A DNA stretch of 64,000 bases from assembly GCA_000091205.1 (NCBI GenBank), contig AP006495.2; one strand, given 5' to 3'. Source of the DNA: Cyanidioschyzon merolae (taxonomy: Eukaryota). Position numbers and translations under genes: made by a program. Of this stretch, positions 5,741 through 60,994 are shown in pieces (positions within the stretch are counted from its first letter, which is position 1; each line of letters begins with the position of its first letter). The notes under the pieces were generated by a model. The model did not search any database and was not told the DNA's origin. It saw only the letters and a list, made by a program, of their open reading frames with translations.

Positions 5741-7364
5741 TCGCTGGCCGACTGCGGCGGATGCAGGTTGCCAGTGGTATGGGTGGCGCTCGAGCCTTTT
5801 TGGAATGCGGACCGCTCTACATATCAGTGGATTGTACAGGGGTGGGGAGTTTTTTGCGCCCTCATTGCGCTGGCCACTGGTTTTTTCATCGCTTGTTTTC
5901 AGCGTTTCAAAAAAATGCCGATACTGAGTACGAGATATTTCACGCGAAAGCGTGTTTGACACAGCGTCGATCGACGTTTCGTAGGTACGATCCGTTTCCG
6001 GGTATTGCTCGAGGCGGGCGAGTCTCTGTAAAGAAAGCTCTTGCGTGTACTGGTGGCTGTCAGATCAGACCATGGCGAGCCTGACGCCTTCGATTGTCCC
6101 GACGTATGACGTTTGGTCAACTTAACTTATACCATGTCGTGTGTCCGGCTGTGGATCGCGCTCTCCTATTCAACCGGTTTCAACGCGCATCCGCGCCCGT
6201 AATTCATGCACGATATACAGAGCGCATCAATAGAAAGCGCGACGATTTGATTCCTGCATTCGTGATAAGGTCCTGGTCTGATCAGGAACACCGCCTGTGT
6301 GCGCTGCAGCATTTGCATTTCTGTCTGGGTATCATCAAACGGTGCGAATCATTGGTGATCCGCTTTTCTACAACACATCCAATTCTTTTGCGAATGCTCG
6401 CTAGTTACTACAGGATAATCGGAAACGTTTGCCAACTCAGCGCGCTCTCACGTACGCTTGGCCAATATCATTCGTACAAATGTCACCGCTGCGAAAGGCA
6501 CACCGAGGCTGTCCAGAAACACGATGGAGATCACAAGCAAAGCGCAGATTGCAGTTTTTTCCTCGGCATGAATGGTTCAGATTGTAGCTGGAAGCAGCGA
6601 ATTGGCGACATGAACGCTACCATCGACATCCGTCGTCTGCCTACGACGGCGGTGGATGGAAAGCAGAGACCAGCATACTCAACGCCGGATGTAAGAGAGT
6701 GTGGACAGGGAAGCAGCCGCGAAGGATGCATATAAATTCTGATGTTGAAACATGCTGGGAACGGATGCGAGCATCGGTGTGTTTACGGACGTCTACGATA
6801 AGTGGACCGTTTCCATTTCACGCTGACATGGGTCTCGAGACACCTCTCCGCGAGTCCGTGGAACGTCTGGCATGGTTGTTTCCACGCTTGTGGCTGATAT
6901 GCAGCGGCAATTATCGTGGACAAAATGGTACTTTCATGCGAAAGCCGGTGGATCAGGTTTCTTTTCTCTGACAGAGCGTTTTACACAGACCAGCGATCCC
7001 CGAACGCACGTTCGTTCTTAGCGCCCGGCAAAGCATCCAGCGTTCCAACTAGTTCTAAGTTCAACTACGCGTACCTATCCTCAAAGCTGCTTTTTATTTC
7101 TCTCCTTCTGTCGTGTGCCGAGTGCATATCATGAGCGTCCCCAATGGCGCCTATAGCGCAGGTGCGGTCCGAGCACAGAGACCGAACTGCTTCGCCATAC
7201 CAATACGGGCGTCGGCTCGAAGCATGATTCGGTTCTGCACGCGTTGGAAAACGAAACCGCGCTCGCTCGCATACCGTCATCCAACGTACGCTGGAGGTCT
7301 GTCGCTCCCACTGTCCGCGTGTTCCATGTCCTCAGGTAACTAGCTGCCCGCCCGGTTGCACCGT

Positions 7365-23206: not shown

Positions 23207-23763
23207 GGTTCGAAGGCTTTGCGAAAAGCGTTGGCCGAGCTTGTTCCCGGATTATCGTTTCCAGGGTGGAGCTCGAAACAAGCTCCTGTGATGATGGCGA
23301 CCGACGGAATGTCCACGCGATTGTTCTTTACGTCAATTTTCCCTGAGTCAAACAAGATGACTTGTTTGCACCCTTCTAGGTAGATGTAGGAAAAGACCTC
23401 ATGGTGGACGTCGACCCCAGGTCCATGAACATGATCGCCGGCGCCGTATCTCTAAATCGAGAGAACGCAGCCAAGGACCTCGAAGGGAACGCAGATGACG
23501 GTGCTCAGCTTTATCAGGGCTCGTTCGTATTCGGAATCGGGCATGAATCGCATCGGGAGGCATACCATCAAGTGGAATGGCTGCATTGGGACCCAGATCA
23601 ACGCTTTGATCACCGTATCGAGGAGACAGAGGTGCTTTGGACGCTTCATGCAGCGCGTACGCATGTGTCCGAATCGCTCAAGCGGCGGAGCCTGTACAGG
23701 AGTACATCGGCCCAAGTCAGGATCATCAAAGGTTTCCGCTTGATGGATGCAAAAACCGTGCAT
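23207..23763 (-). pseudogene. Possible calcineurin-like metallophosphoesterase (Vps29/YfcE-like) C-terminal region interrupted by an in-frame TAG
   Basis: Minus-strand frame reads ..HLMVCLPMRFMPDSEYERALIKLSTVICVPFEVLGCVLSI-TAG-RYGAGDHVHGPGVDVHHEVFSYIYLEGCKQVILFDSGKIDVKNNRVDIPSVAIITGACFELHPGNDNPGTSSANAFRKAFEPLL-stop(23207-23209). The GDHVHG..HHE....DSG....IPSV pattern resembles the GHTH / NPGS / IIPSFV C-terminal motifs of small metallophosphoesterases. The stop at 23452-23454 is in the same frame. The N-terminal part is not resolved. Confidence 0.25.
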
Positions 23764-25138
23764 TCGTCAACTCGCTCAATGAGTTGGCTAACGAATGTCG
23801 AACGCGTTGTTTGATGCTCGCCTGTGGCGCTGGACATGCTGCCGCGTGCCACGGCTGTGCTCTTGGTGCTCCAACGAGAGGATACAGCGGGTGCAGCAAT
23901 TGATTCTTTATGAATCTCATGGATATGTTCTGGGCTGTGTAATCGCATCACGAGCACGGATGCGCACTGAAAAGGTAGAGAAAACGAAAGTGAACAAATC
24001 GGATGTGCGAGATGCTGTACGGTGAGCCGAACAACCTGCAGATGACGAGGGCATCCAGTGCGAGAGGCGTGCTGTGGTGTCATGCCGCCAGCGATGCTGT
24101 GCGCAAGCACTTGCTGCCCCAAGGCTTCAACAACTCGATCGACAATAGGCATTGTCTCGTGCATCAGTAGCGTCCAATAGTTCGGTGTCCAGCGAGGCCT
24201 CGAAAGAGTCGTTTGGTACTCTCTCTCTGGGCACCGTGCTGAACTGCGGCTGACTTGGCATGAAAAATCAGTGTTTACGACTGAGGCCATGCGACACTTG
24301 CTTGCCAGGATCAACGCAGTGACATGGCACGTTTCAGGTATGTGGAGAGGCTGGAGCGCCTTGTTCACAAAGTGGGAACGAGATTTTTAGGCTATTGGCG
24401 AACGATCATGGGGCTCCCTTATTCGATACGTCTGCGTACAGCGAGTTGCGCACGACACGCGGAAAGTGGTTTGCAGATGCGACATTCGTACGTTTTCTTG
24501 AACTGACAGGGTTTTGGTAGGACGGTAAGCACCTGGCCACCTCGTAGCGGACCGGTCAGTCGTCTGAAGCTGATCTTCCCGCTCCATACGGCGCCTGCGG
24601 GAAATTAAAGGCAAATCGGTATCCCTCCCATCAGTCTCAGTCAGTAGACGCACCTCAGGTAGAAGCGATGATCATTTGCGGGCACGGACGCCTCAGCGCA
24701 TCGGACCCTAGCGAGTGCGCTCCGGACGGCGTATTGAATGGTGCGCGTCGTGGCGCTGGGCCTCCTAGCTTCGATGCAAGCTCATGGTGCCGAGCGTCGT
24801 GAATGCACAACGAATATCCAACAGGAGCGCCTTGGCCAGCGGATGTTTTACCAGTTTGTGCCCAATGACGCTGCGCATGCCGTCAGCGTCGAGCTGGCGA
24901 CGAATGCCCCCCTCAGCGATAGGCCTAATCAACCTCAGCTTCTGATGCAGGCTTCCCCGGTAAGCGCACAGTCACGAGCGCCGATAGCGTCTGCGAATGC
25001 CCGCCTATGCCTGATGGACGCTGTTCCATTCGAATACGTGTTGCGGCCAGAGACAACCTCCAAAGCAGAGCCACGCTTCTGTATAAATACCCTGCTTTGC
25101 GTGCATTTGAACTCGAAAATGTTTCGGAGCACGCTTTC

Positions 25139-25946: not shown

Positions 25947-26209
25947 AACACGAACAGCAAACGCTTTTCAAAAGAAAAACGTTGCTGCCAGTGGTACAGT
26001 AGTGGCGAGTGTCCCGCCCTAGACAAGACGACGCCAACTGATGTGCAGACGCCTCGGAGGATTTCTCGGCGGGCCATGTACGAATGCTTTCAATCTTGTC
26101 TCATATAGTTCCACATTGAGAGGGTGTCCCACAAAGTTCTCTCCTGTCCACGATGGGGGCTTCTTTCCATCACCGCACATTTCCTTCCACTGCATGCGGC
26201 GTTCAAGTC

Positions 26210-26695
26210 TCAATGCACAAACGCTATGCGTTTCTCGCCATTCGTAGTTGTACTTTCTAATGCGAGCAATCCTCGAACTTTCGCCCTTCTTTCCATTTGC
26301 TCTTGCGTCAGCGCTCCGTACGTTTGTATATTACCAGGGCTCCGCTGGCACTTTTCTTTCTCGACGCTCTGAAGTGTACACCCCAGCTCGTGGCGTGTAT
26401 ACGATGTTCGGAACTTATCTACAGGTATCGTGACGAAACAGTGTGCGCACTCCTTGTACGTTCTTGTCGTCGGGGCTGGCGTCGTTCCTTTTTGGGTCAT
26501 CCAGCGCCCTGCCCAATAAGCTACTATGAGCCTCTGACTTTCATTCTCCTTCAGGGCGCTCAGCCGATTGAAAAAGTTCGCGAACGCGCGCCGCTTCCCA
26601 CAGTGTAGATTCATTCGCAATCGAGCCCACCGGGGCTTTGGAAATTCTTTTCGCAGCGCCTCCCAATGAGCAACGCGAACTTGCATGAATTTCAT
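26210..26695 (-). CDS. Element ORF4 (copy A), Cys-rich C-terminal module
   Basis: MKFMQVRVAHWEALRKEFPKPRWARLRMNLHCGKRRAFANFFNRLSALKENESQRLIVAYWAGRWMTQKGTTPAPTTRTYKECAHCFVTIPVDKFRTSYTRHELGCTLQSVEKEKCQRSPGNIQTYGAL... It is in the same frame as ORF3 and separated from it by a single TGA. Confidence 0.45.
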   Translation of the reverse strand: MKFMQVRVAHWEALRKEFPKPRWARLRMNLHCGKRRAFANFFNRLSALKENESQRLIVAYWAGRWMTQKGTTPAPTTRTYKECAHCFVTIPVDKFRTSYTRHELGCTLQSVEKEKCQRSPGNIQTYGALTQEQMERRAKVRGLLALESTTTNGEKRIAFVH

Positions 26696-26713
26696 AAAAG
26701 CTTGAAAGTCCGC

Positions 26714-27244
26714 TCATCGGATCGTCAGTGCGCTCAAAGCTGCCAGGTGATCCTTCATTCCTGCGTTCCATGTCTCAATTTTCTTCCTCGCATTCATTAT
26801 ACCGGATTCTCGAGAATATCTAGTTCTTGAGAACCTCAACAGACGCAAGTCGCTCTCACGTAAGTTGCCGTCAATGCCATCTACCGCACGCTTCGGTGCT
26901 GCGATGGTCATGATATTCGTATTCCCAGGGTCCGTGCCAACGACGAAGTCGTTATCCTGCACTTTCTATGTCGCAGGATCCGCCACCTTCTCATCTTCAT
27001 GCTTCGCCGCGTCAACGACGAGGCCCTTGTCATGCACCTCCTGTGTCGCGGGATCCGCCTCCTTCTCATCTTCATGCTTCACCGCCTCAACGACGAGGCC
27101 CTTCTCATGCACCTCCTGCGTCGCAGGATCCGCCTCTTTGATTTCTTCATCCTTCGTGACGGGCGCGGCCGAGGGCGGAACTGGACGATTTATCTTCAAC
27201 CGCCGATAGTGTACACACAAAGCTACTCCATCGGTTTCGATCAT
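26714..27244 (-). pseudogene. Element ORF3 (copy A), frameshifted inside the 69-bp repeat block; contains the RuvC-I-like motif
   Basis: Track ORFs 26966..27244 ([21 protein letters not shown]...EKVADPAT) and 26714..26962 (..[36 protein letters not shown]..) are the two halves of one reading frame that is intact in copies B and C. Copy A lost part of one repeat unit. Confidence 0.45.
26985..27140. repeat. In-frame 69-bp tandem repeat (23-aa [25 protein letters not shown]), about 2.3 units in copy A
   Basis: Same unit as at 32029-32212 (3 units) and 56542-56815 (4 units). Confidence 0.8.
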
Positions 27245-27456
27245 CCCCGTGGATACATTTCGCTTTCTGACTTTGAGACTTTTGAAATCGAAGATATTCT
27301 TTCAGTGCGTCTCATGGTTTTCGCCAGTGAAGTCCTCTCTGCTAACATTGAACTCGGGACTGATCTCCCTCATGATGCCGTAAAGGACGCCGGAATCGAT
27401 ACTCACAAAATGTGACTTGATGTTGCGCATTGGAACGACGTTGAAGCGCTTACCCA

Positions 27457-27942
27457 TTAGGATAGACTTCCATCTCTCTCACTCTTCATTTCCACCTTGC
27501 GTTCGAGCTCTCGGTCCAGAAACACGAAATATCGCAGGACAAGGCGATAGGATCTTTTCTTATCTTTTTTCAACTGTGATATCTTTTCTGCTGGATTCAC
27601 CAGCGCCAGCGCCGCACGGTGCTCTTGTATAACCGCACGGATGACAAAGACCTCATTCGTGCTCTGGTTTGACGCCTTCTCGTCGACGAATTCGATCTCA
27701 TGTTCATGCTTGCGATCGTTCCTTATGCCGTTGAGAATCGCCCGTATCCCTTTGCGAGACATGCCCTGGTAAAGTGCAAACACGGCGCGTATCATGAAAC
27801 GTTCGACGTTCATTGTCAAATGATTCTTCAGGTTCGTGACGCACTTCATCGCCCCGTATGCGTAGATATCCCAGTCACCCTTGTATCGAGTACCGTTGAT
27901 GCTGTAAAGGGTATTTCTCGTGGAGGGCGTGATTCCGCTCAT
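27457..27942 (-). CDS. Element ORF2 (copy A)
   Basis: 161-aa ORF MSGITPSTRNTLYSINGTRYKGDWDIYAYGAMKCVTNLKNHLTMNVERFMIRAVFALYQGMSRKGIRAILNGIRNDRKHEHEIEFVDEKASNQSTNEVFVIRAV..., 97-99% identical at protein level to copies B and C. It lies in the -1 frame relative to ORF1. Confidence 0.45.
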   Translation of the reverse strand: MSGITPSTRNTLYSINGTRYKGDWDIYAYGAMKCVTNLKNHLTMNVERFMIRAVFALYQGMSRKGIRAILNGIRNDRKHEHEIEFVDEKASNQSTNEVFVIRAVIQEHRAALALVNPAEKISQLKKDKKRSYRLVLRYFVFLDRELERKVEMKSERDGSLS

Positions 27943-28283
27943 TTTCCCTCCGCGCTTCCCGCTGTACCATGCATCAGGTATCGAAAAAACGTCTTGTCGA
28001 AGGATTCGCCCGGAATCTCGACCGTTTCCATGTGCGCCACATCGCGATACATCTCCCTCGCCAAATGCATCCGTCCTGACGACGCCTTGAGAATACTCTT
28101 GGAGTACGAGTCGACACGGTTCCTAATGGCCTCTCGCAACTTTTCCCTGTACGGATCCTTGACATGTCCAACAAGACAGGCTTTCACCGCCATCTCGGAG
28201 TACAGTTGTCTTTCTTGCCGCCTTCGACGTAGGGCCTCCCTCTTTTGCTTCATTTTTTCTTCTTGTTCTTCTGAACTCGGCAC
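27939..28283 (-). CDS. Element ORF1 (copy A; longest N-terminus of the three copies), basic N-terminal protein
   Basis: MPSSEEQEEKMKQKREALRRRRQERQLYSEMAVKACLVGHVKDPYREKLREAIRNRVDSYSKSILKASSGRMHLAREMYRDVAHMETVEIPGESFDKTFFRYLMHGTAGSAEGK. It ends on the conserved GGGAAAA-TGA junction and overlaps ORF2 by 4 nt. Confidence 0.45.
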   Translation of the reverse strand: MPSSEEQEEKMKQKREALRRRRQERQLYSEMAVKACLVGHVKDPYREKLREAIRNRVDSYSKSILKASSGRMHLAREMYRDVAHMETVEIPGESFDKTFFRYLMHGTAGSAEGK

Positions 28284-30962
28284 TGTTTCTTGTTTTTTTT
28301 TCTGGCAGCCAGCGACACTGAGCCTCAGGATCGTCGACTTGCTTTTTCATAACTTTCCTTTTTTAGGTTTTGTAAAAAGAACGCTTTTGAACGCTTCTGT
28401 TATAATCCGCAAAAAATCAATCGAACATTTTTACTTGAGGTTTGAAACACAAATGAAACCGAAAAACTGTACTTGGCTATGAACTCAACGAGAATACAAC
28501 TTTTACATCAGAGCTACACGCTAGAAATCACGATCACGTTTCCCGTCAACGGAGGCATACGCGTCGTGTCAGTTTACTGCCTGATCTCCCAGTTGCGCTC
28601 ACTGAGCGCGATGCGTGCACCTCGCCAGACGCCTCACCGATCGATGAAGGACACGTGTCCGACGCCGCATTGGCATATGCGTGTTCGCATCGCGTTGCAG
28701 CGGAAATAAAGTATCGTAGATCGGAAATTCACGCAGAGTAGTCTCTCGCTATAGGCTATGTCGCTGGTGCCGACGCTGCTACCCATCGCAGTACCGCCTT
28801 GACAGACATGTAGATGTTGGGGCCTTGCAAGAAACCCCTCGACGCTTCTATCAAAAGCGTAGCCATCGTAGTATCCTACGATCGTGCGGGTGAGGTATGC
28901 ATCACTCTACTCAATAGGAGTTTCGTTAGTTTTATTGATCGTAAACAAACAAGGCATAGTAGTGTTCCCGAACACGGATATGCGTTTAATCCCTGTGCTT
29001 GTTATGCAGGCTGCACGGACGCTGGGATGAGAAACTGGTTTGAGTTGTGCTTCTATCCTGCGTCATGGGCAGGTACTGATGGCAGGTCAAGTCATTGCCA
29101 TGCTGCCGTCGTTGTCCAAGTTATGATATCCGCTACTCTCTCGGATCCGGTGATCTCGGCAGAGGAATAGCGCACATGTAGCGTGCAGATGTATCACGGC
29201 GTTTGACTGACGCATCTCGCCTGGCACGTTCGAAGCATCCGCTAAAAGCGCATACTGTATTCTGGTCTATTCTCACCGTTTACTGGCAAGAGCCTAAAAT
29301 GTAGATAGCGGTGCAATCGTCAAACCGTGAACTTTTCCGTACCCCCGCCGCTCCATATGCTCCCGGATGCTCGGTGGCTGCCTGCTGGTTTCCCACTCTC
29401 ACCAGCAAAACTGCAGAACGGAAGGATTTTCTTTCTATCTTTTACCGTTCAATGACTGGAAACCGTTTCACGACCATGTAGGGTAAATTCATATCCACTC
29501 ACAGACGCCTCCCGGTCTTTTTGGACTGGCCAACAACTACTGTTTCCAACTTGTCCTTGGACAAGTTGGCAGTAGGAGGCTGTCCCACAAAGTCGGATCG
29601 CGTCAGCTCCGCCGGTCGCGCCTCCATCGTCATTCATCCGTTGATACTGATCGTGTTTTGTCTAAAACGCTTGTGATAGAGCTGAGGTCAAGAGGCGATC
29701 AATTTTGACCGACGCTATCACACGATCGGTACCAGAAGCTAAGGGCTGCAGCCGGCACCAGGTGCTCTTGTGACGGCATGCTGGCCGTGAAGAGTGCGTG
29801 ACGAAGCCGCATGGCACGCGAGGGTGTCCTAGTACATAAAACGAGGACGTGCCCGAGACGTTCAGATTCAGGGTAATGACGAGTCGCCGCTACGGTATTC
29901 TGGGAAAATAATCCGAGTGAGCTTTTGTTGCTCGAACATCGAGCACTATCACGAGTGTGGGTGCGTTTCACTGCACGGTTTGTAACGATCATAGAATCCA
30001 CCATCATCCAAAAGCGACGAAATGTCATACGCGCACCGGCCTCGTAAATCCAGGTCAGGACGTGCCCAGCAGCACGGAAACAAATTACGTGAACTGCTGT
30101 GCTTGCACCGAACGAAAGGAAGCATGCGTTTCCTCGACCGAAGATAGAGGCTTCCGAATTCATTCAGATACTGCCGATGTTTCGCCCGAACCCAGACCAC
30201 CATCTGCAATGTGCCCAAGACCATACACAGGATGCCTACGATTGTTTGCATCATCAAGTTAAGTCCTACTCACGCCAGTACCTCAGATATATAGTTCGGA
30301 CACGACACATGCTCGAAATGGAAGCCGTATGGGGTTTGCCGCAGGCGCCAACGGCACACCAGGTTGCCCGGCTCACCCGTGCCATTGCACACCACGCTTA
30401 TCCAAAACTCGGCTGCAACTGTAGCAGCGGCATCGCCAGCGTGTATGCATCGGCGCCATAGGATTTTTCATTGAGAAAACGTTTCCATTGACCATGGATC
30501 CCAGATTGCCGGATGGGCGCAGACATACGGGAAATCACTCTTTATGTTGTACCCTTATTTCTAGTTCCATTCGCGATTGTTCCTCTCGGATATACTGGTC
30601 ATTTTGCAGGTTATATCGTGCGCCTAGTGCGTGCCGTGCCTAATCCGCCTTGGCGCCTGAACCGCTGGAGCAGATATTTTTGGTAAAGACTGAACTGCTT
30701 TTCCGTACCGCTGAGGGTGTCGGATCAAGGAACGCTTCGTCTGATGTGGAGTAGGAGCACGTGATCATTCCGGGAGCCTGAAAACTGGGAGACATACGAT
30801 CTTTCTGCGACAGCGCGAAGCGATATACTAGGAGTGATCAACGACCAGGGTGATGCCCCGTCGCAGCATACCCGCTCCTAGTCCCAGAATAAAGTGCATT
30901 GCGAACGAGTTGCTCAGATTTAACCAAAGTACCTGTCACTGGGGCGGACATGAAGCGCAAGC

Positions 30963-31696
30963 TTGGGAACCTGTCTTCTTAAATATATCAAGGATCCGTA
31001 CAGGGAAAAGTTGCGAGAGGCCATTAGGAACCGTGTTTACTCGTACTCCAAGAGTATTCTCAAGGCGTCGTCAGGACTGATGCATTTGGCGAGGGAGATG
31101 TACCGCGACGTGGTGCACATGGAAACGGTCGAGATTCCTGGCGAGTTCGTCGACAAGACGTTTTTTCGATACCTGAAGCATGGTAGAGCGGGAAGCGCGG
31201 AGGGAAAATTGAGCGGGATCACGCCCTCCACGAAAAATATCCCTTTTACAGCTTCAAAGGTACTCGATACAAGGGTGACTGGGATATTCGCAGCTACGGG
31301 GCGATGAAGTGCGTCACGAACCTGAAGAATCATTTGACAATGAACGTCGAACGTTTCATGATACGCGCCGTGTTTGCACTTTACCAGGGCATGTCTCGCA
31401 AAGGGATACGGGCGATTCTCAACGGCATAAGGAACGATCGCAAGCATGAACATGAGATCGAATTCGTCGACGAGAAGGCGTCAAACCAGAGCACGAATGA
31501 GGTCTTTGTCATCCGTGCGGTTATACAAGAGCACCGTGCGGCGCTGGCGCTGGTGAATCCAGCAGAAAAGATATCACAGTTGAAAAAAGATAAGGAAAGA
31601 TCCTATCGCCTTGTCCTGCGCTATTTTCTGTTTCTGGACCGAGAGCTCGAACGCAAGGTGGAAATGAAGAGTGAGAGAGATGGAAGTCTATCCTAA
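30963..31696 (+). pseudogene. Element ORF1/ORF2 region (copy B), carrying two private 1-nt insertions
   Basis: Track ORFs 30963..31307 and 31304..31696. An extra t converts gggaaaatgagc to gggaaaattgagc, and a second indel near ..aaaaatatccctttt breaks ORF2 until MKCVTNL.. resumes the copy-C frame. Confidence 0.4.
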
Positions 31697-31908
31697 TGGG
31701 TAAGCGCTTCAACGTCGTTCCAATGCGCAACATCAAGTCACATTTTGTGAGTATCGATTCCGGCGTCCTTTACGGCATCATGAGGGAGATCAGTCCCGAG
31801 TTCAATGTTAGCAGAGAGGACTTCACTGGCGAAAACCATGAGACGCACTGAAAGAATATCTTCGATTTCAAAAGTCTCAAAGTCAGAAAGCGAAATGTAT
31901 CCACGGGG

Positions 31909-32439
31909 ATGATCGAAACCGATGGAGTAGCTTTGTGTGTACACTATCGGCGGTTGAAGATAAATCGTCCAGTTCCGCCCTCGGCCGCGCCCGTCACGAA
32001 GGATGAAGAAATCAAAGAGGCGGATCCTGCGACGCAGGAGGTGCATGAGAAGGGCCTCGTCGTTGACGCGGCGAAGCATGAAGATGAGAAGGAGGCGGAT
32101 CCTGCGACACAGGAGGTGCATGACAAGGGCCTCGTCGTTGACGCGGCGAAGCATGAAGATGAGAAGGAGGCGGATCCCGCGACACAGGAGGTGCATGGCA
32201 AGGGCCTCGTCGTTGGCACGGACCCTGGGAATACGAATATCATGACCATTGCAGCACCGAAGCGTGCGGTAGATGGCATTGACGGCAACTTACGTGAGAG
32301 CGACTTGCGTCTGTTGAGGTTCTCAAGAACTAGATATTCTCGAGAATCCGGTATAATGAATGCGAGGAAGAAAATTGAGACACGGAATGCAGGAATGAAG
32401 GATCACCTGGAAGCTTTGAGCGAGGTGACAAGCCGATGA
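31909..32439 (+). CDS. Element ORF3 (copy B): repeat-containing protein with RuvC-I-like motif
   Basis: ATG start; ..[10 protein letters not shown](E/D/G)KGLVV x3 ..[74 protein letters not shown], then TGA. Confidence 0.45.
32029..32212. repeat. In-frame 69-bp tandem repeat, 3 units (copy B)
   Basis: Direct reading; units start at 32029, 32098 and 32167. Confidence 0.8.
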
Positions 32440-32466
32440 GCGGACTTTGAAGCTTTTCTGAAATTC

Positions 32467-32943
32467 ATGCAAGTTCGCGTTGCTCATTGGGATGCGCTGT
32501 GGAAAGAGTACACCAAGCCCCGGTGGGCTCGATTGCGAATGAATCTACACTGTGGGAAGCGGCGCGCGTTCGCGAACTTTTTCAATCGGCTGAGCGCCCT
32601 GAAGGAGAATGAAAGTCAGAGGCTCATAGTAGCTTATTGGGCTGGGCGCTGGATGACCCAAAAAGGAACGACGCCAGCCCCGACGACAAGAACGTACAAG
32701 GAGTGCGCACACTGTTTCGTCACGATACCTGTAGATAAGTTCCGAACATCGTATACACGCCACGAGCTGGGGTGTACACTTCAGAGCGTCGAGAAAGGAA
32801 AGTGCCAGCGGAGCCCTGGTGATATACAAACGTACGGACCGCTGACCGAAGAGCAAATGGAAAGAAGGGCGAAAGTTCGAGGATTGCTCGCATTAGAAAG
32901 TACAACTACGAATGGCGAGAAACGCGTAGCGTTTGTGAATTGA
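32467..32943 (+). CDS. Element ORF4 (copy B)
   Basis: In frame with ORF3 across one TGA (32437-32439). ..KECAHCFVTIPVDKFRTSYTRHELGCTLQSVEKGKCQRSPGDIQTYGPLTEEQMERRAKVRGLLALESTTTNGEKRVAFVN. Confidence 0.45.
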   Translation: MQVRVAHWDALWKEYTKPRWARLRMNLHCGKRRAFANFFNRLSALKENESQRLIVAYWAGRWMTQKGTTPAPTTRTYKECAHCFVTIPVDKFRTSYTRHELGCTLQSVEKGKCQRSPGDIQTYGPLTEEQMERRAKVRGLLALESTTTNGEKRVAFVN

Positions 32944-33595
32944 GACTTGAACGCCGCATGCAGTGGAAGGAAATGTGCGGTGATGGAAAGAAGCTCCCAT
33001 CGTGGACAGGAGAGAACTTTGTGGGACACCCTCTCAATGTGGAACTATATGAGACAAGATTGAAAGCATTCGTACATGGCCCGCCGAGAAAGCCTCCGAG
33101 GCGTCTGCACATCAGTTGGCATCGTCTTGTCTAGGGCGGGACACTCGCCACTACTGTACCACTGGCAGCAACGTTTTTCTTTTGAAAAGCGTTTGCTGTC
33201 GGGGCTTCTCAAGGCCGAGCGCCCGGTCAACGTCGCGCTAGGCTGAACTCACTGACCTACGAGAGACGCCTTCCTAGTGTTCGTCTCGGTGCCTGGCGTT
33301 TGCATGGAACTTTCTCGACAGTCTATATCTGTTTCCACACTTTTACGACTGTTTACGTAGCCTTGACTGGTAGGTATCGGTAGCAGACTAAAACGCGGGT
33401 AGACTTTCGGTGACCGAATAGCCAAAGCGAGTCTGTCCTGTGCTAGGACGCTGTTGCTCGGCAGTCTCTACGCGACATAAGCGTCCCACTTGGTGGTCGT
33501 TGCTGCTGTTATTGTCGTGGTGTTGTTCTTGTTGGTGTCGGAGGTGGTAACTGGATCCGTGTCTCAGAACATTCCTGCCTCGCGGGTGCCACGAA

Positions 33596-39432: not shown

Positions 39433-39748
39433 GTCATCGCCGCGACAGGCGCACCGAGTGTCCATCCAAAGAAGCTTCAGTGAGCAAGCGCAACGTCGAT
39501 CGCAGCTTCCGCCTTTAGGTAAACAATGCGATAAAAAAGCAGCAGTCGGAAACAACGAGCATCGGCACGCTTTATCTGCTATGAGTGTCTATCGACAGTT
39601 GCTCATAGAGCTGGAGCCCCAGAAGAGACCGACGTTCCTAAAAGTTGGAGATAAGACGCGGGAAACCGTAGCAGTCGAAAAAAAGTTTCGCATACGCAGG
39701 TATTGAGGATAGCAAGAAGATGCCGCAAACACGAGGGCGTGCGTTCGG

Positions 39749-45360: not shown

Positions 45361-48300
45361 CACACCCGGGCGCACGTCGTCTTTCTTGTGCAAGTCCTTC
45401 TCCAACCGGAAAGGTCGTCACCTAACGACATATACACGTGTATTCCATTTGAAGAAAGGAATATCCAAGGGAAAGGTATGGACGTGCGCGTCGAGGATCC
45501 TGGTGTGCCGTCATCACCAGGTAGAACAACAACCGAAAAACGAAGAAAATCCTCTTCTCGTCGATCATTGAGAGAGCGACGAAGAGCAGCTTACGACGAA
45601 GAAGAGGATGACCAGGAGAGATTGACGACAACAAACGTTTGCTCGACGTAACGATGACGAGACTGTAGTGGCAAAGCGAGCACGAGTTCGAGGACTCGCA
45701 GCAAAAGTGACTTTAGCCATCGTCAATGCACCCAGGGCGTTCGTGAACCGAGACTTGAACGCCGTCATCAATATCAGAAGATATGTGGTACTGAAGACGA
45801 AACCCGCGGAGCTGGCTTGATGTTATTTTATGGGGCAGCATCTCAGGCTCGAATTGTGCCTGGATGAATACTAGAACCGATAGAAGGCAGCCGGTCAAAA
45901 AATAGGCCGGGCGGCGTCTGCGAGTGAGTTTGTATTCACGCTCCATGGTCGTGAATCATTTCTCGTTCCACTGGCTTGTTGTTTTGAAGAATCAAGATGA
46001 TTCGCGACGCCCGCCAAAAAGGTGTATAACGTACCCCAAGTCACGAGCCAACGCTTACGCACGAGCCTCTACGCCTATCCATTCCATACATATGCAGTGG
46101 CCCAGTGATACATGCTTCAGGTTTTCGATCTCTCTGTTTCAAGGCGACTCGTGTGCGCAGCGATTCGTGCCACTGGTCTGAAGAGGAAACATAAAACGCG
46201 ATGCTTCCTTTTGACGACTCGTCCACAGGCAAATGCGGAACGGTCGCTGAACTTGTCAGGCCACGAAGCCGCTTCCGTGCGAAAGACCAATCCTGCTTTC
46301 GTTTCGAGCATAGGCGAAACGGCGCTTGACAACACCATGATAGCTCGCACAGCATAGACCGTGCGACGCCCTCATCTCTTCTGACTGCATGAAACTGGGA
46401 CTTCGACTCGGGCTTTCGTCATCGCAGCGATTGCGCCCAGTAGGGGAAGCGTAGAGAATTCGAGTTTGTTTGACTTTGTCTAGAGCCCGGATTTTCCTTT
46501 CGATCCTTGTTTCAGTATGAATGGGACTGCGCTCCACAAATCCATGATCCATTGGAACAGCATTCGCCTGCGTTTGCAGCGTACATCGTACTCGCTCATG
46601 GAATCGCCCAGAACACGCCAGTACTGGTAGGGTGCGGCATCGAGCGCGAAACCAGCAGGAAAACATCTGAGACAGCCTTCTGGTATCGCCAAGAGCATGT
46701 ACCGAGCGATGGAGCAAGTGTTCGCACGCCACAATGCGGCTTTCAGAGGAGCACGAGGCGTCGTTCGGGACGCACCGGAAAACCTGACTACCGGCAAGTG
46801 TACCTGCTTCGAGGGATGCACAGAGGCTGTTCACAGAGAAGATGCGCGTGCCTGGCGAAAGACTTCTAGATTGCAACTCCCACGTCTGCGAGGAATTTTT
46901 CTACGAGTTCTACTGCGGCGGCCTCGAGAATTCAACGCTGCTATGAGCATTCTTCGCCCGTCGACGACGGATCTGGAGGCATACAGCGGAACGGAGTCAT
47001 GAAAACCGGACACACGGGAAAGGCAATGGACGCTGTCGCAGAAAGACCGCGTAAAGGCTGGTACTGAATGGTCGTAAGAAAATATTCAATCCTGTCCGTT
47101 TACGCCCGTATTCGCGGACCTGGTTCATGTGCTTTCGCAATGGGTGTCACGAAGACTCGCCATGTCGTTTCAATCAATTCCTCACGATCAAGTAGGACGG
47201 ATGATCCTCGTCAGATTCTCCAGCTATGCAAGGACCGACGATAACCCTGCCGGTTGGCTCGTGAAATCCACGCCCGTGTCCAGATTCCACAAACACCAGA
47301 CTAGTATATATCAAGACCGATCCGTGAATCATTGGGGGCTCCTGGCCGACACAGAGCGCTCACGAGCCCACTGGATACGGCGGTGCCGACCTCGTTGTGC
47401 GGAAGCACGACCGCGTTCTTCGCCCCGCTACCGAATCCACAGACCTAATCGAATGCAAACGAAATGCTCACGAGCATCCAAATGACTTTTTCGAGTCTTT
47501 GACGGGCGATCGACACGGCTCCTGCTGCGCATCCCGGATCGATGCGGGGAGGTGCTGGGCAGCGAGCCTTGCAAAGGTTCGGGTTACCGGGGCGATAGAC
47601 TGCACCTCTTGCCTAGATGTTGCTGTGTTGCACCGTCTCCAGAACAAAGCTGACCTGCAGCATTGTTTATAATCTATCGATCGCTGGGTCTACCAGTAAC
47701 CCGGTCAGTTTCAAGACGCTCGTAGCGTTTCGCCTTCGACACGAGGCACACAGCCTCGTACGTTGTCGTACGGAAGCGCAGCAGCATCGACTTTCCGCAG
47801 CGACCGCCGACTGCTTTGTACCAGGATGACCACCACAGCTCCATTGCTTCAGCAGAACGCCTCGATAACGAGACTCGACTACTCGATATCGTCTATGGGC
47901 ATGGTGCATCGATTCGATAGCAAGAAAAGTCAGACGTTGGTTGAGATATCGACAGCGTCTGGTGTACCCGTGCATCCGGGTATGGCGTGCCTCGCACCCG
48001 CAGCGTATCATGCAGTACTCGTGCAATGCGTATTCGCTGGCACCTCAGCACTGAACGCGACTACGACACCTTTGCCTCTGCCTGGGGACACCCACGCTCG
48101 CTGATGGTCTAGAGTATAGCGTGAATCCAACCGAGCGCTCAGATTCAAGCGTAACAGCGACAGTGTTTCGGATGCGCTCCGGCGTGCGACGGGATGCACC
48201 GTGCAGGACGCAAGCGCAAGAGAAACGCATCCGTTCGCATGAAGTATCCGTTGGATGGATTGCTGTTCGCATTCATATCTCAATAGATGCATCGACGAAG

Positions 48301-54863: not shown

Positions 54864-55490
54864 ATCCTTGGACAAGGACGTCGACTAGCGACCGAGGCAC
54901 ACAGACTCCCGGTACAACGCTAGCTCCAGATAATGTATGCCAGATTGCCTTATTGTAATTGACGTCGTCGTCGGTAGCGTTGTGGCTGCTGAAGCCATTT
55001 CTTCGATGAGAAGACGTTTGTATGGATCATGGATTCTAGATTGTGGGGTGGATATTGAAATCAATGCCAGTGCTCAATATGATTCGCTCTTACGCCAAGT
55101 TTCATGGTCTGTTCTCGGATATACTGGTAATTTCGTATGTTCTATCGTGCGCTGAGTACCTGCATTGCTGCATCCGCAATAGAGCCAATGCTGCTAGTGC
55201 GGATGCTGAATGGAGACAGAACGGTTTTGCCATATCCATGGGGGTATCGGATCGAGGAATGCTTCATTGAATACGGAATCGGGATTCGTCAACATTCTGG
55301 AAGCCTGGGAGATGTGCAGTTAGACCTACTGCCTGCAGCAGCGCGAAGCGATATACTAGGAGTGATCAACGACCAGGGTGATGCCCAGTCGCAGCATACC
55401 CGCTCCTAGTCCCAGAATAAAGCGCATTGCGAACGAGTTGCTCAGATCTAACCAAAGTACCTGTCACTGGGGCGGACATGAAGCGCAAGC

Positions 55491-55739
55491 TTGGGAACCT
55501 GTCTTCTTAAACATATCAAGGATCCGTACAGGGAAAAGTTGCGAGAGGCCATTAGGAACCGTGTCGACTCGTACTCCAAGAGTATTCTCAAGGCGTCGTC
55601 AGGACGGATGCATTTGGCGAGGGAGATGTATCGCGATGTGGCGCACATGGAAACGGTCGAGATTCCGGGCGAGTTCGTCAACAAGACGTTTTTTCGATAC
55701 CTGAAGCATGGTACAGCGGGAAGCGCGGAGGGAAAATGA
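55491..55739 (+). CDS. Element ORF1 (copy C; TTG at track start, N-terminus truncated by a TGA relative to copy A)
   Basis: ..CLLKHIKDPYREKLREAIRNRVDSYSKSILKASSGRMHLAREMYRDVAHMETVEIPGEFVNKTFFRYLKHGTAGSAEGK, ending in GGGAAAA-TGA (55730-55739). Confidence 0.4.
   Translation: MGTCLLKHIKDPYREKLREAIRNRVDSYSKSILKASSGRMHLAREMYRDVAHMETVEIPGEFVNKTFFRYLKHGTAGSAEGK
55730..55739 (+). promoter_or_regulatory. Candidate -1 ribosomal frameshift site: heptamer G_GGA_AAA followed by a TGA stop, with the ORF2 ATG in the -1 frame
   Basis: gcg gag gga aaa tga (frame 0: AEGK-stop). The -1 frame reads ggg aaa atg agc gga = GKMSGITP... GGGAAAA fits the X_XXY_YYZ pattern. It is identical in copies A and C; copy B is fused in frame by a 1-nt insertion. 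Confidence 0.35.
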
Positions 55740-56221
55740 GCGGAATCACGCCCTCCACGAAAAATACCCTTTACAGCATCAACGGTACTCGATACAAGGG
55801 TGACTGGGATATCTACGCATACGGGGCGATGAAGTGCGTCACGAACCTGAAGAATCATTTGACAATGAACGTCGAACGTTTCATGATACGCGCCGTGTTT
55901 GCACTTTACCCGGGCCAGTCTCGCAAAGGGATACGGGCGATTCTCAACGGCATAAGGAACGATCGCAAGCATGAACATGAGATCGAATTCGTCGACGAGA
56001 AGGCGTCAAACCAGAGCACGAATGAGGTCTTTGTCATCCGTGCGGTTATACAAGAGCACCGTGCGGCGCTGGCGCTGGTGAATCCAGCAGAAAAGATATC
56101 ACAGTTGAAAAAAGATAAGGAAAGATCCTATCGCCTTGTCCTGCGCTATTTTCTGTTTCTGGACCGAGAGCTCGAACGCAAGGTGGAAATGAAGAGTGAG
56201 AGAGATGGAAGTCTATCCTAA
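55736..56221 (+). CDS. Element ORF2 (copy C)
   Basis: MSGITPSTKNTLYSINGTRYKGDWDIYAYGAMKCVTNLKNHLTMNVERFMIRAVFALYPGQSRKGIRAILNGIRNDRKHEHEIEFVDEKASNQSTNEVFVIRAVIQEHRAALALVNPAEKISQLKKDKERSYRLVLRYFLFLDRELERKVEMKSERDGSLS. Confidence 0.45.
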   Translation: MSGITPSTKNTLYSINGTRYKGDWDIYAYGAMKCVTNLKNHLTMNVERFMIRAVFALYPGQSRKGIRAILNGIRNDRKHEHEIEFVDEKASNQSTNEVFVIRAVIQEHRAALALVNPAEKISQLKKDKERSYRLVLRYFLFLDRELERKVEMKSERDGSLS

Positions 56222-56433
56222 TGGGTAAGCGCTTCAACGTCGTTCCAATGCGCAACATCAAGTCACATTTTGTGAGTATCGACTCTGGCGTCTTTTGCAG
56301 CATCATGAGCGAGATCAGTCCTGAGTTCGATGTTAGCAGAGAGGACTTCACTGGCGAAAACCATGAGACGCACTGAAAGAATATCTTCGATTTCAAAAGT
56401 CTCAAAGTCAGAAAGCGAAATGTATCCACGGGG

Positions 56434-57039
56434 ATGATCGAAACCGATGGAGTAGCTTTGTGTGTACACTATCGGCGGTTGAAGATAAATCGTCCAGTTC
56501 CGCCCTCGGCCGCGCCCGTCACGAAGGATGAAGAAATCAAAGAGGCGGATCCTGCGACGCAGGAGGTGCATGACAAGGGCCTCGTCGTTGACGCGGTGAA
56601 GCATGAAGATGAGAAGGAGGCGGATCCTGCGACACAGGAGGTGCATGACAAGGGCCTCGTCGTTGACGCGGCGAAGCATGAAGATGAGAAGGAGGCGGAT
56701 CCCGCGACACAGGAGGTGCATGACAAGGGCCTCGTCGTTGACGCGGCGAAGCATGAAGATGAGAAGGAGGCGGATCCCGCGACGCAGGAGGTGCATGACA
56801 AGGGCCTCGTCGTTGGCACGGACCCTGAGAATACGAATATCATGACCATCGCAGCACCGAAGCGTGCGGTAGATGGCATTGACGGCAACTTACGTGAGAG
56901 CGACTTGCGTCTGTTGAGGTTCTCAAGAACTAGATATTCTCGAGAATCCGGTATAATGACTGCGAGGAAGAAAATTGAGACACGGAATGCAGGAATGAAG
57001 GATCACCTGGAAGCTTTGAGCGCGCTGACGACCCGATGA
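56434..57039 (+). CDS. Element ORF3 (copy C): 4 x 23-aa repeats followed by a RuvC-I-like motif
   Basis: [36 protein letters not shown]([25 protein letters not shown])x4 ..[33 protein letters not shown]... The G-T-D-P-(G/E)-N-T-N-I-M-T-I-A pattern resembles the RuvC-I motif (G-I-D-x-G-x-x-x-x-A/T) of TnpB/Cas12/Fanzor nucleases. Confidence 0.45.
56542..56815. repeat. In-frame 69-bp tandem repeat, 4 units (copy C)
   Basis: Unit gaggcggatcc(t/c)gcgac(a/g)caggaggtgcatgacaagggcctcgtcgttgacgcgg(c/t)gaagcatgaagatgagaag, with starts at 56542, 56611, 56680 and 56749. Confidence 0.85.
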
Positions 57040-57057
57040 GCGGACTTTCAAGCTTTT

Positions 57058-57543
57058 ATGAAATTCATGCAAGTTCGCGTTGCTCATTGGGATGCGCTGT
57101 GGAAAGAGTACACCAAGCCCCGGTGGGCTCGATTGCGAATGAATCTACACTGTGGGAAGCGGCGCGCGTTCGCGAACTTTTTCAATCGGCTGAGCGCCCT
57201 GAAGGGGAATGAAAGTCAGAGGCTCATAGTAGCTTATTGGGCTGGGCGCTGGATGACCCAAAAAGGAACGACGCCAGCCCCGACGACAAGAACGTACAAG
57301 GAGTGCGCACACTGTTTCGTCACGATACCTGTAGATAAGTTCCGAACATGGTATACACGCCACGAGCTGGGGTGTACACTTCAGAGAGTCGAGAAAGAAA
57401 AGTGCCAGCGGAGCCCTGGTGATATACAAACGTACGGAGCGCTGACGGAAGAGCAAATGGAAAGAAGGGCGAAAGTTCGAGGATTGCTCGCATTAGAAAG
57501 TACAACTACGAATGGCGAGAAACGCGTAGCGTTTGTGCATTGA
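57058..57543 (+). CDS. Element ORF4 (copy C): Cys-rich C-terminal module, in frame with ORF3 across a single TGA (57037-57039)
   Basis: ..TRTYKECAHCFVTIPVDKFRTWYTRHELGCTLQRVEKEKCQRSPGDIQTYGALTEEQMERRAKVRG.. shows a T-x-T-x-x-E-C-x-x-C ... C ... C ... D arrangement reminiscent of the TnpB Zn-finger plus RuvC-III segment. I cannot identify the RuvC-II glutamate with confidence. Confidence 0.4.
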   Translation: MKFMQVRVAHWDALWKEYTKPRWARLRMNLHCGKRRAFANFFNRLSALKGNESQRLIVAYWAGRWMTQKGTTPAPTTRTYKECAHCFVTIPVDKFRTWYTRHELGCTLQRVEKEKCQRSPGDIQTYGALTEEQMERRAKVRGLLALESTTTNGEKRVAFVH

Positions 57544-58028
57544 GACTTGAACGCCGCATGCAGTGGAAGGATATGTGCGGTGATGGAAAGAAGCTCCCAT
57601 AGTGGACAGGAGAGAACTTTGTGGGACAATCACTAAAAGTTGAACTATATGAGAAAACCATGGAAGCAGGAGTAGATGGCCGCTCCAAAAAGACGTGACA
57701 GAGTTTGCACCTCAGTCAGAGACTTCTTGTCTAGAGCGTATTTCTCGCCACTACTGCGTACTGCTGCCGGCAGCAACGTTTTTCTTTTGAAAGACGTTCG
57801 GTGTTTAGAAATCGCCGGCGCTGGCTCATCGGCTCTCTCCTGTGTCGTCTATTGACGCAAAGATTTGTGTTTTTTGTGCTTCCTAGCTTCGACGCTGAAG
57901 CGTTTGCGGCGTGCTCAGTGAACTTTGTACTCTGTTCACTGATCGGTAATCCGGGACGCGTTATACGACGCGCGCACTTAGCATTTATTGGCTACTTTTC
58001 GAGCTCAATCTTCCAAGCCTAAGTTTCA

Positions 58029-60953: not shown

Positions 60954-60994
<41 letters not shown>

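Follow-up and report, generated by a model that had tools for sequence, protein, structure and literature searches.

Apparent recoding junctions in three decayed CMe-1A copies of Cyanidioschyzon merolae read as inherited inactivating mutations

The junctions that divide a nuclease gene into four small open reading frames (ORF1 to ORF4) in three repeat copies of Cyanidioschyzon merolae are very probably inherited inactivating mutations, and the comparisons made here argue that there is no programmed recoding in these loci. The window, that is, the whole 64,000-nucleotide stretch of DNA that was analysed, almost certainly holds three decayed copies (A, B and C) of CMe-1A, a Fanzor1-carrying TE of this species, or of a very close relative. 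CMe-1A is an already known family, published in 2013. A sequence-only reading had offered two explanations of the junctions. The first, regulated -1 frameshifting and TGA readthrough leading to a fusion nuclease, is contradicted by the continuity of the relatives and the consensus and by the lack of a stimulatory structure. The second, descent from an already-disrupted, non-autonomous master, is supported by the lesions that the three copies have in common when set against the relatives and the consensus.

Identity of the element

CMe-1A was first reported by Bao and Jurka (2013, Mobile DNA 4:12; PMC3627910). It is described as an element of approximately 3 kb without TIRs and with TSDs that are not determinable; its copies are about 80% identical to the consensus and only some of them are intact (PMC3627910). 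The consensus has one unbroken ORF in a single exon ('734 (1)' in the supplementary table), which encodes the 734-aa CMe-1 protein, and its 5' end is modular, being shared with another repeat, TE-N2_CMe (PMC3627910). The consensus used here (3,169 bp) was taken from supplementary file 2 of PMC3627910.

The three copies and their lesions are listed in Table 1. By blastn, positions 55004-55494 of copy C correspond to consensus 1-494 (76% identity) and 55498-57796 to consensus 1075-3169 (84%), and the two parts of copy B, 30472-30966 and 30970-33191, to consensus 4-494 and 1075-3169. Identity to the consensus is 83-84% over 671/1075-3169 in all three copies and 76% over 1-494 in B and C. Copy C thus runs from consensus 1 to 3169 and copy B from 4 to 3169, and copy A ends at 3169. 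The N-terminal coding region is still present in copy A, and its 5' module, which differs from that of the other two, reaches upstream to about 29297-29729. The flanks outside the ends of copy C are unrelated to those of copy B. No convincing TSDs were found at the ends of copies B and C, and the repeat scan of the window reported no terminal inverted repeat at the scale of the element, in agreement with PMC3627910. A search of the module of approximately 1 kb upstream of copy A and of its metagenomic counterparts found no transposase and no conserved ORF of any kind.

Table 1. Coordinates of the CMe-1A copies, their lesions and other features of the window
Feature	Position	Strand	Remarks
Copy A	25962..28586	-	consensus 671-3169 (blastn)
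Copy B	30472..33191	+	CMe-1A with 580-bp internal deletion as in copy C (blastn to consensus)
Copy C	55004..57796	+	CMe-1A end to end, 580-bp internal deletion (blastn to consensus)
1-nt insertion	55717	+	common to A (27961), B (31189) and C (55717); consensus position 1293
GGGAAAA + TGA	55730..55739	+	ancestral frame AGG GAA AAT GAG (Arg-Glu-Asn-Glu)
2-nt deletion site	55766..55767	+	A (27912) and C (55766) only; consensus position 1343
Second frame break, ORF2 to 'ORF2b'	56186..56221	+	22-nt deletion in all copies, consensus position 1765
In-frame TGA	56197..56199	+	codon 298; ancestral frame, after the 22-nt deletion
In-frame TGA	56374..56376	+	codon 357; conserved Trp codon TGG to TGA, all three copies
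In-frame 75-nt (25-aa) tandem repeat	56520..56821	+	linker before RuvC-I
RuvC-I catalytic Asp codon GAC	56821..56823	+	retained; aligned to DPgr motif of PpFz1 and SpuFz1
ORF3/ORF4 TGA	57037..57039	+	codon 503; mutated Gly codon, GGA to TGA
RuvC-II catalytic Glu to Lys	57337..57339	+	GAG to AAG, all three copies
TGA ending 'ORF4'	57541..57543	+	codon 671; Arg codon CGA to TGA in RuvC-III motif N-R-D-x-N-A-A
1-nt deletion site	57587	+	near C-terminus, all copies; consensus position 2963
Terminal stem-loop	57767..57806	+	3' boundary of the element, copy C
Solo CMe-1A 5' module fragment	6969..7230	+	consensus 4-264, 68% identity
Aldo/keto reductase	12367-13362		ends TGA
DAO-domain gene	17111-19456		ends TGA
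LPD-like gene	21089-22744		full-length Pyr_redox_2 and dimerisation domain; ends TGA
Divergent Fanzor-like gene remnant	23492..24176	+	heavily decayed; ~31% aa identity to P0001 residues 511-742, many stops
Isolated CMe-1A 3' tail fragment	29502..29626	-	consensus 2959-3083; ~0.9 kb upstream of copy A
Older CMe-1A fragment, 3' ORF end + tail	45659..45930	+	consensus 2849-3093, 67% identity

Sequences compared

The state of each lesion was judged against the CMe-1A consensus and 71 relatives, sequences that are about 80-84% identical; the relatives are metagenomic sequences rather than any of the roughly 150 other CMe-1A copies of this genome. Each junction was read from nucleotide alignments to the consensus and to one relative, L001. 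Nearly all of the relatives are themselves decayed. Other than L001, none of the 43 full-length relative loci has an uninterrupted ORF, and in L001 the conserved ATG lies one base out of frame. The state called intact rests on the continuity of L001 across the junctions and on the published consensus. The sequence-only reading had made a continuous frame in other copies its own check on recoding, and the outcome goes against recoding, as the relatives and the consensus have one ORF with sense codons at the sites of the junctions.

The ORF1/ORF2 junction

The arrangement that suggested frameshifting is present as it had been described for copies A and C. ORF1 of copy C (55491-55739) ends GAG GGA AAA TGA, with GGGAAAA at 55730-55736 in X_XXY_YYZ phase and the TGA at 55737-55739, and the ATG of ORF2 (55736-55738) lies in the -1 frame inside the heptamer. 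Copy A, on the minus strand, has the same arrangement (heptamer 27948-27942, TGA 27941-27939). The ancestral frame, however, crosses the heptamer in the third frame, which is neither the ORF1 frame nor the -1 frame. In 56 sequences, relatives and window copies taken together, this stretch reads in frame as K/R-E-N-E/V or similar. It is AAG GAA AAT GAG in L001 and AGG AGA AAT GAG in the consensus, where the corresponding letters are GGAGAAA and there is no heptamer. The 'slippery heptamer' is, on this alignment, ordinary Arg-Glu-Asn-Glu coding sequence seen out of frame.

That ORF2 seems to lie at -1 to ORF1 is the net effect of two separate indels, a 1-nt insertion at 55717 and a 2-nt deletion at 55766, with 50 nt between them. 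At the insertion the reading passes from the ancestral frame to that of ORF1, which exposes the out-of-frame TGA. Copy B still has the 2 nt that are missing from A and C at consensus position 1343. It had been supposed that a 1-nt insertion fuses ORF1 to ORF2 in copy B. This insertion, at 31209, lengthens ORF1 by only 33 codons before a stop, because the 2 nt that B retains put the reading out of frame once more some 30 nt farther on.

A -1 slip at the heptamer would regain the ancestral frame about 13 codons further on, as the two indels sum to -1. This point, the X_XXY_YYZ phase of the heptamer just before a stop in A and C, and the occurrence of TGA 57037 in all three copies are what can be said for programmed recoding, in which a -1 frameshift at G_GGA_AAA and regulated readthrough of TGA would provide a low level of a functional fusion nuclease. 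We nevertheless hold it to be extremely unlikely, given that the ancestral frame is the third frame, that one of the two indels behind the offset is missing in B, that the consensus has no heptamer, and that sense codons stand in relatives where the copies have TGA. The slippery pattern is in the zero frame in A and C only, within the mutant ORF1 frame made by the 55717 insertion. The two-frame arrangement is not conserved in the relatives and the consensus, where a single frame reads straight through, and B is unlike A and C in this respect.

Neither downstream structure nor a known signal accompanies the heptamer. The segment downstream (55740-55830), where a stimulatory structure was to be looked for, has a folding energy of -16.9 kcal/mol; shuffled versions average -18.4 (z = +0.53), and 139 of the 200 shuffles fold at least as stably. 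Rfam, searched at E up to 10, gave neither a SECIS nor a frameshift family. The 64-kb window has one heptamer of the form XXXYYYZ per 571 nt or so, and among its 611 stop-to-stop ORFs that are 60 codons or longer, 7 have one in phase within the last four codons, so that such a coincidence is expected a few times per 64 kb.

The first junction is also bracketed by a GT...AG pair, and the AAAA and poly-A tracts are error-prone, the length of the poly-A varying among metagenomic copies. These observations are those that would fit breaks caused by spliceosomal introns or by sequencing or assembly errors, with a real mRNA or genome that is intact. An intron from GT 55711 to AG 55776 would be 66 nt long, a multiple of three, leaving the frame unmended and removing conserved residues, and the consensus ORF is a single exon. 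Errors are difficult to reconcile with identical lesions in three separate copies of one assembly beside copy-specific ones, a pattern of inheritance, and the point nonsense mutations and the 22-nt deletion are unlike homopolymer errors. There is hardly any probability left for this explanation.

The ORF3/ORF4 stop codon and other lesions

ORF3 and ORF4 were correctly seen to lie in the same frame with one TGA between them in each copy (A 26716-26714, B 32437-32439, C 57037-57039). This in-frame TGA is not conserved in homologues: of 70 sequences, 62 have GGA (Gly) at the site. In all, 64 of the 70 have Gly at codon 503, the remaining codons are GGT, GGG, GCA and AGA, and TGA is found in A, B and C only.

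The two junctions first described do exist, but the list was incomplete. Further breaks are the frame change at 56186-56221, TGAs at 56197, 56374 and 57541, and the 1-nt deletion at 57587. At codon 298, 51 relatives have TGG, the consensus has TCG and the window copies have TGA. Of the sequences scored at codon 357, 47 have TGG and the window copies alone have TGA, and the Trp is invariant in the family alignment (W335). Codon 671 encodes Arg in 61 relatives and is TGA in the window copies and in two relatives, L044 and L045. Private lesions are a -1 deletion (28327), a +2 insertion (28301) and a TAG (26968) in copy A, and the 1-nt insertion at 31209 in copy B. The 580-bp internal deletion takes out the ATG in B and C, which are without a start codon. 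None of the three copies has a single uninterrupted 734-aa ORF, the frame being broken by three common frameshifts, four common TGAs and the private lesions. The pattern of ORF1 to ORF4 is an artefact of a stop-codon scan over a dead gene. A RIP-like or CpG-deamination origin of the TGAs was considered and rejected: only CGA to TGA (57541) fits a CpG transition, and GGA to TGA is a transversion, so that the TGAs are not put down to any one mutational process.

The full set of lesions adds to the case against recoding. A full-length product would need at least two to three frameshifts and four readthroughs, the junction at the 22-nt deletion has no slippery site, and the product would still have Lys in place of the catalytic Glu and, in B and C, would lack a start codon. 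The substitutions among the copies are without coding constraint as well. Variable sites among A, B and C are distributed 34/28/38 over codon positions 1/2/3 (p = 0.47), as compared with 100/87/137 (p = 0.002) between the relatives L001 and L002. This even spread of differences over codon positions points to neutral decay.

One of the four common TGAs (56374) stands at a conserved Trp codon, as a reassignment of TGA to Trp would give. The TGA at 56197 corresponds to Trp in relatives but to Ser in the consensus, however, and the other two stand at Gly and Arg codons. TGA is a genuine stop here, as had been maintained for the LPD gene: the LPD-like gene, the aldo/keto reductase and the DAO-domain gene, host genes with full-length Pfam matches, end in TGA. 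There is no SECIS, and decoding TGA would leave the ORF broken because frameshifting indels coexist with the stops. Of the readings weighed, the decoding of TGA as selenocysteine or Trp in this gene, with the in-frame TGAs as sense codons, is given the very least credence. Inherited inactivation remains the reading that we adopt.

The encoded nuclease

The ORFs had been taken for parts of a nuclease, and homology of the family profile bears this out: they are pieces of a Fanzor1 RuvC nuclease gene. The profile matches PDB entries 9cf0 (E = 2.3e-21) and 8gkh (E = 1.3e-16), and the alignment spans the ETDG, DPG, DEFRTS and NRDxNAA motifs and the WED, RuvC and TNB regions. Direct sequence searches of Pfam and PDB with the stitched conceptual protein gave nothing useful; the homology emerged only through a large protein database and the family profile.

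The catalytic triad of the Fanzor1 RuvC domain is D-E-D (PMC11423790). These residues are present in the family consensus, within GADPG, VDEFRTS and NRDFNAA respectively. In the window copies the three positions are D, K and D and the third motif is immediately preceded by a TGA, so that the D-E-D triad is lacking. The RuvC-I position is D in 65 of 68 sequences. At RuvC-II, which aligns to IDEFRTS of PpFz1 and LDEYKTS of SpuFz1, 57 relatives have D-E and the window copies only have D-K. The TNB/zinc-ribbon domain (PF07282) is matched at E < 0.1 by 6 of 13 members, the close relatives being without CxxC...CxxC, and its gathering score is passed by a distant member, P0076, alone (29.3 vs 26.3 bits). 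The linker that precedes RuvC-I has four repeat units in C and three in A and B, and one in the consensus, relative to which C has gained 225 nt in frame and A and B 150 nt.

The 3' end and other fragments

Family members have a conserved non-coding 3' tail with a hairpin at its end; in copy C the tail takes up about 57560-57806. This terminal stem-loop has a dG of -14.9 kcal/mol in copy C (z = -3.4) and of -18.8 to -20.1 kcal/mol in A and B (z = -6.2). Of 33 family members, 22 have z < -2 for it, and the pairing is preserved by at least three stems of different sequence. For the 3' region as a whole, RNAalifold produced next to no consensus fold (-1.9 kcal/mol, 7 pairs); within this region the support is for the terminal hairpin only, tested sequence by sequence.

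Smaller remnants related to the family are also present in the window (Table 1). The older fragment at 45659..45930 still has FVNRDLNAVINI. The solo 5' module fragment at 6969..7230 is possibly a TE-N2_CMe-type repeat.

A model of the history of the copies

The intact element carries an intron-less gene, followed by the conserved non-coding tail and hairpin. The product of this gene is a Fanzor1 of about 734 aa, one of the TnpB-like RNA-guided RuvC endonucleases of eukaryotes. In the lineage of the window copies the gene died through the +1 insertion, the 22-nt deletion, the 1-nt deletion, the four nonsense TGAs and the Glu-to-Lys change of RuvC-II. The dead sequence would then have been copied to new sites. 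Afterwards the copies would have diverged neutrally, each gaining lesions of its own, and recombination or gene conversion would have moved segments between them. Copies B and C have no ATG and yet have the consensus termini and unrelated flanks, which argues that they spread after the death of the gene. We infer both this order of events and a mobilisation of the dead copies in trans by other machinery.

CMe-1A has no TIRs, TSDs or transposase of its own, and the terminal hairpin and the spread after death bear on how the family moves. A more far-reaching proposal, that CMe-1A is mobilised wholly in trans with the terminal hairpin as its cis signal, is tentative and in our judgement rather unlikely. 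An IS200/IS605-like DNA hairpin and the terminus of the omega-RNA are the two forms that this putative cis signal might take. If mobilisation in trans were true, the few intact Fanzor1 proteins would have in the dead copies a reservoir of guide-RNA genes.

The three loci are best annotated as CMe-1A (Fanzor1) pseudogene copies and not as four small ORFs. An in-phase heptamer before a stop and common in-frame TGAs in repeats can mimic recoding, and one intact relative or a family consensus suffices to settle whether recoding or pseudogene lesions are present.

Comparison with known systems

The -1 frameshift sites of retroelements and IS elements, which combine X_XXY_YYZ with a stem-loop or pseudoknot downstream, resemble the ORF1/ORF2 junction in the heptamer pattern and its phase to the mutant ORF only, in copies A and C. 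The junction differs from them in lacking both a stimulatory structure and conservation among relatives. Its zero frame was itself made by an insertion upstream, and the ancestral frame at the site is other than the -1 frame.

Compared with published CMe-1A, the window copies have the same termini, 84% nucleotide identity in the ORF and tail and 76% in the 5' module, and ancestrally the same encoded protein, CMe-1 of 734 aa. They differ as a dead sub-lineage with a specific common set of lesions, in the 580-bp internal deletion of B and C, in the 5' module of copy A, which is absent from the published consensus, and in the three to four units of the 25-aa linker repeat against one in the consensus.

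Among structurally known Fanzor1 proteins, PpFz1 (Parasitella parasitica, PDB 9cf0) and SpuFz1 (Spizellomyces punctatus, PDB 8gkh) are related to CMe-1 distantly, at a level detected only by profiles. The window copies differ from both in the absence of the catalytic Glu and in being unable to encode the protein, and the canonical CxxC...CxxC of the TNB zinc ribbon is absent from the CMe-1 lineage. The WED, RuvC-I, RuvC-II/TNB and RuvC-III regions of the two proteins can nonetheless be aligned with the family, and their catalytic D, E and D positions match those of the CMe-1 family consensus.

Identity of the element

Copies A, B and C share 92-97% mutual identity (blastn, MAFFT) and lie among densely packed, intron-free ORFs in a window of 55% GC. 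In a blastn search of the window with the published CMe-1A consensus, copy C matched in two blocks, 55004-55494 (consensus 1-494, 76%) and 55498-57796 (consensus 1075-3169, 84%). Copy B gave the same two consensus blocks, and copy A corresponds to consensus 671-3169 (83-84%). These blocks identify the element as CMe-1A. Together with the GC content and the ORF style, the match would make Cyanidioschyzon merolae, or an alga very close to it, the host. This family has been described as ~150 copies of ~3 kb, ~80% identical to the consensus and only some of them intact, without TIRs and with TSDs that could not be determined (PMC3627910). Its 5' 635 bp are common to another repeat, TE-N2_CMe, and the 3,169-bp consensus and a 734-aa single-exon protein are given in supplementary files (PMC3627910).

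The joined frames of the window copies yield one protein of ~640-750 aa. Direct Pfam and PDB sequence searches with this conceptual protein gave no match. Its homologues in a large protein database are many and mostly labelled DUF8286, one also having a Cas12f1-like TNB domain (PF07282); among them is P0001, 752 aa long (60% identity, 97% coverage). A family profile built from 13 diverse members and searched against solved structures matched the Fanzor1 proteins of Parasitella parasitica (Fz1, 9cf0; E = 2.3e-21) and Spizellomyces punctatus (Fz1, 8gkh; E = 1.3e-16), with alignments spanning WED 'ETDG', RuvC-I 'DPG', RuvC-II 'DEFRTS' and RuvC-III 'NRDxNAA'.

Features of the CMe-1A copies and other pieces in the window
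Feature	Position	Strand	Detail
Copy A core	28586-25962	-	blastn/MAFFT
Copy B	30472-33191	+	blastn/MAFFT
Copy C	55004-57796	+	blastn/MAFFT
Copy A 5' module	28586-29729	-	upstream of core; ~0.7-1.2 kb; differs from B/C
580-bp internal deletion	consensus 495-1074		B and C; blastn to consensus
1-nt insertion	55717 (C)	+	A, B, C; ACAG-AGG to ACAGCGGG
2-nt deletion	55766 (C)	+	A and C, not B; 50 nt downstream of the +1
Private 1-nt insertion	31209	+	B, in place of the A/C 2-nt deletion
22-nt deletion	56186 (C)	+	A, B, C
Second frame change, ORF2/short 'ORF2b'	56186-56221 (C)	+	alignment to relatives
Fourth common TGA	56197 (C)	+	directly after the 22-nt deletion of all copies
In-frame TGA	56374 (C)	+	invariant Trp codon TGG
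75-nt (25-aa) in-frame tandem repeat	C 56520-56821; B 31995-32221; A 27158-26932		linker before RuvC-I
ORF3/ORF4 TGA	57037 (C)	+	GGA Gly in 62/70 sequences; GGT/GGG/GCA/AGA in 5; TGA in A, B, C only
TGA closing 'ORF4'	57541 (C)	+	Arg codon CGA of RuvC-III motif N-R-D-F-N-A-A
1-nt deletion	57587 (C)	+	alignment to relatives/consensus
Terminal stem-loop	C 57767-57806; B 33160-33200; A 25993-25953		exactly at the element's 3' boundary
Solo 5'-module fragment	6969-7230	+	TE-N2_CMe-like
Isolated 3'-tail fragment	29502-29626	-	
Older 3' fragment	45659-45930	+	tail/ORF end
Second Fanzor-like remnant	23492-24176	+	heavily decayed, more divergent; ~31% aa identity to P0001 C-terminal RuvC half; many stops
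312-aa ORF	25139-26077	-	starts in copy A 3' tail, runs into flank
Tandem-repeat array	5398-5740		111-nt unit, 3 copies; unrelated to element
Tandem-repeat array	11137-11439		101-nt unit, 3 copies; unrelated to element
Tandem-repeat array	39049-39513		93-nt unit, 4-5 copies; unrelated to element

The ORF1/ORF2 junction

ORF1 of copy C (55491-55739) ends in GAG GGA AAA TGA. The heptamer GGGAAAA occupies 55730-55736 in the X_XXY_YYZ phase, and the ORF2 ATG (55736-55738) overlaps the ORF1 stop in the -1 frame. On the minus strand, copy A is arranged identically. From this junction and the TGA between ORF3 and ORF4, the sequence-only reading proposed a fusion nuclease expressed by frameshifting or readthrough. 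Its observations were largely accurate, except for an incomplete list of junctions and a supposed ORF1-ORF2 fusion in copy B. That fusion is absent: the 1-nt insertion lengthens ORF1 by 33 codons only, because B keeps 2 nt missing from A and C.

At the heptamer site the intact relative L001, the metagenomic locus encoding P0001, reads ...GGT ACA GAG GAA GCG CGG AAG GAA AAT GAG CGG... (G T E E A R K E N E R), and the published consensus reads AGG AGA AAT GAG. Relatives have plain in-frame coding here (K/R-E-N-E/V); among them the run of As is visibly prone to indels. The ancestral frame through the 'slippery heptamer' is a third one, Arg-Glu-Asn-Glu. Because of the common insertion at 55717, reading passes into the 'ORF1' frame, where it meets a TGA that was out of frame before. 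The apparent '-1' results from adding up two unrelated indels, +1 and -2. No stimulatory stem-loop or pseudoknot was found downstream, the 91 nt 3' of the heptamer folding no better than shuffles (z = +0.53; 139/200 equal or better), and an Rfam search returned no frameshift element. An in-phase heptamer also ends 7 of the 611 long stop-to-stop ORFs of the window, which gives the chance level.

In-frame TGAs and further lesions

ORF3 and ORF4 do share one frame with a single TGA between them, at exactly 26714-26716 (A), 32437-32439 (B) and 57037-57039 (C). TGA is a normal stop, as the LPD-like, aldo/keto reductase and DAO-domain genes (full-length Pfam matches) all end in it. Both junctions first named are present; a second frame change, three TGAs and a 1-nt deletion had been missed. 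Each site was compared with its counterpart in the consensus and in 71 metagenomic loci that had been collected using P0001. The 22-nt deletion produces the ORF2/'ORF2b' frame change. The RuvC catalytic triad has been described (PMC11423790). At the RuvC-II catalytic glutamate site A, B and C have GAT AAG (D-K), compared with D-E in 57 relatives and the consensus. The 580-bp deletion removes the start codon and first ~56 codons of B and C. No SECIS element was found by Rfam search.

To yield a full-length product, translation would have to shift frame several times and read through four stops, and the product would still be catalytically impaired; from B or C it would lack a start codon as well. 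Programmed recoding of A, B and C was rejected, the junctions being indels or nonsense changes relative to L001 and the consensus. The fusion-nuclease proposal is refuted, on the terms first set for it, by the sense coding of relatives and consensus and by the lack of a downstream structure. The other explanation first offered, a disrupted, non-autonomous master with inherited inactivating mutations, proved correct, as the lesions are common to all three copies. Seven such lesions show that A, B and C descend from a sequence already dead.

Probable spread after gene death

Among A, B and C the variable sites show no preference for any codon position (34/28/38, p = 0.47), and in the outgroup pair L001/L002 third positions are in excess (100/87/137, p = 0.002), as expected if the inactivated copies drifted neutrally. 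B and C terminate where the consensus does and have unrelated flanks, so they would have inserted as discrete units after gene death, which implies mobilisation in trans. Pairwise similarity in 150-nt windows (55560-57800) is a mosaic: A and C are closest near 55560-55857, around the first junction, A and B in the 3' tail and over 55857-56600, and B and C near 56007 and 57057. The mosaic points to gene conversion or ectopic recombination between copies that lie no more than 30 kb apart.

The terminal stem-loop folds significantly better than shuffles in 22 of 33 members (median z = -2.8). Its pairing is kept by at least three stem sequences, CGUCGUUCGA/UCGAACGGCG, CAACGUUUUUC/GAAAAGCGUUG and GGCGAGCACGCGC/GCGCGUGCUCGCC, including 3' ends of loci L001-L072. 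Candidate roles for it are a cis signal, a terminator and the omega-RNA end. For the remainder of the 3' tail, RNAalifold gave no consensus fold. The copy A 5' module, not in the published consensus, has 77-81% identity to upstream regions of L005, L006, L027, L036, L058, L070 and L073; no conserved ORF was found in it or its metagenomic counterparts. In L005 and L058 the 3' tail of another copy sits upstream of the core by ~1 kb, a hint that insertions may be clustered or nested. The 25-aa linker repeat has one unit in the consensus, three in A and B and four in C, and its number also varies in relatives (e.g. P0001, P0008).

The Pfam Polyketide_cyc/START-like match of the 312-aa ORF (residues 169-284) lies in the flank and marks this ORF as a host gene whose N-terminal extension into the element is, on that evidence, spurious. 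At 58029-61214 (+) lies a 1,061-aa ORF that resembles alanyl-tRNA synthetase and has 12 consecutive glutamines near its C-terminus.

Decay of the family

Relatives L002-L073 lie on metagenome contigs (Ga0080006, Ga0078972, Ga0207433 and others) that reach 176 kb, are eukaryote-like and presumably come from environmental Cyanidioschyzon-type algae. In all of the 43 other full-length metagenomic loci the ORF is interrupted. Even in L001/P0001, the sole continuous relative, the conserved ATG lies within a poly-A tract and is off the frame by one base. Judged from these loci, the whole CMe-1A family is a graveyard. As the family was described in 2013, the window copies are an ordinary case of it; the spread of dead copies after gene death, like the conserved terminal hairpin, offers a small clue to how CMe-1A moves. 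The decay of the relatives fits the 2013 account, in which CMe-1A is old and only a few of its members are still intact.
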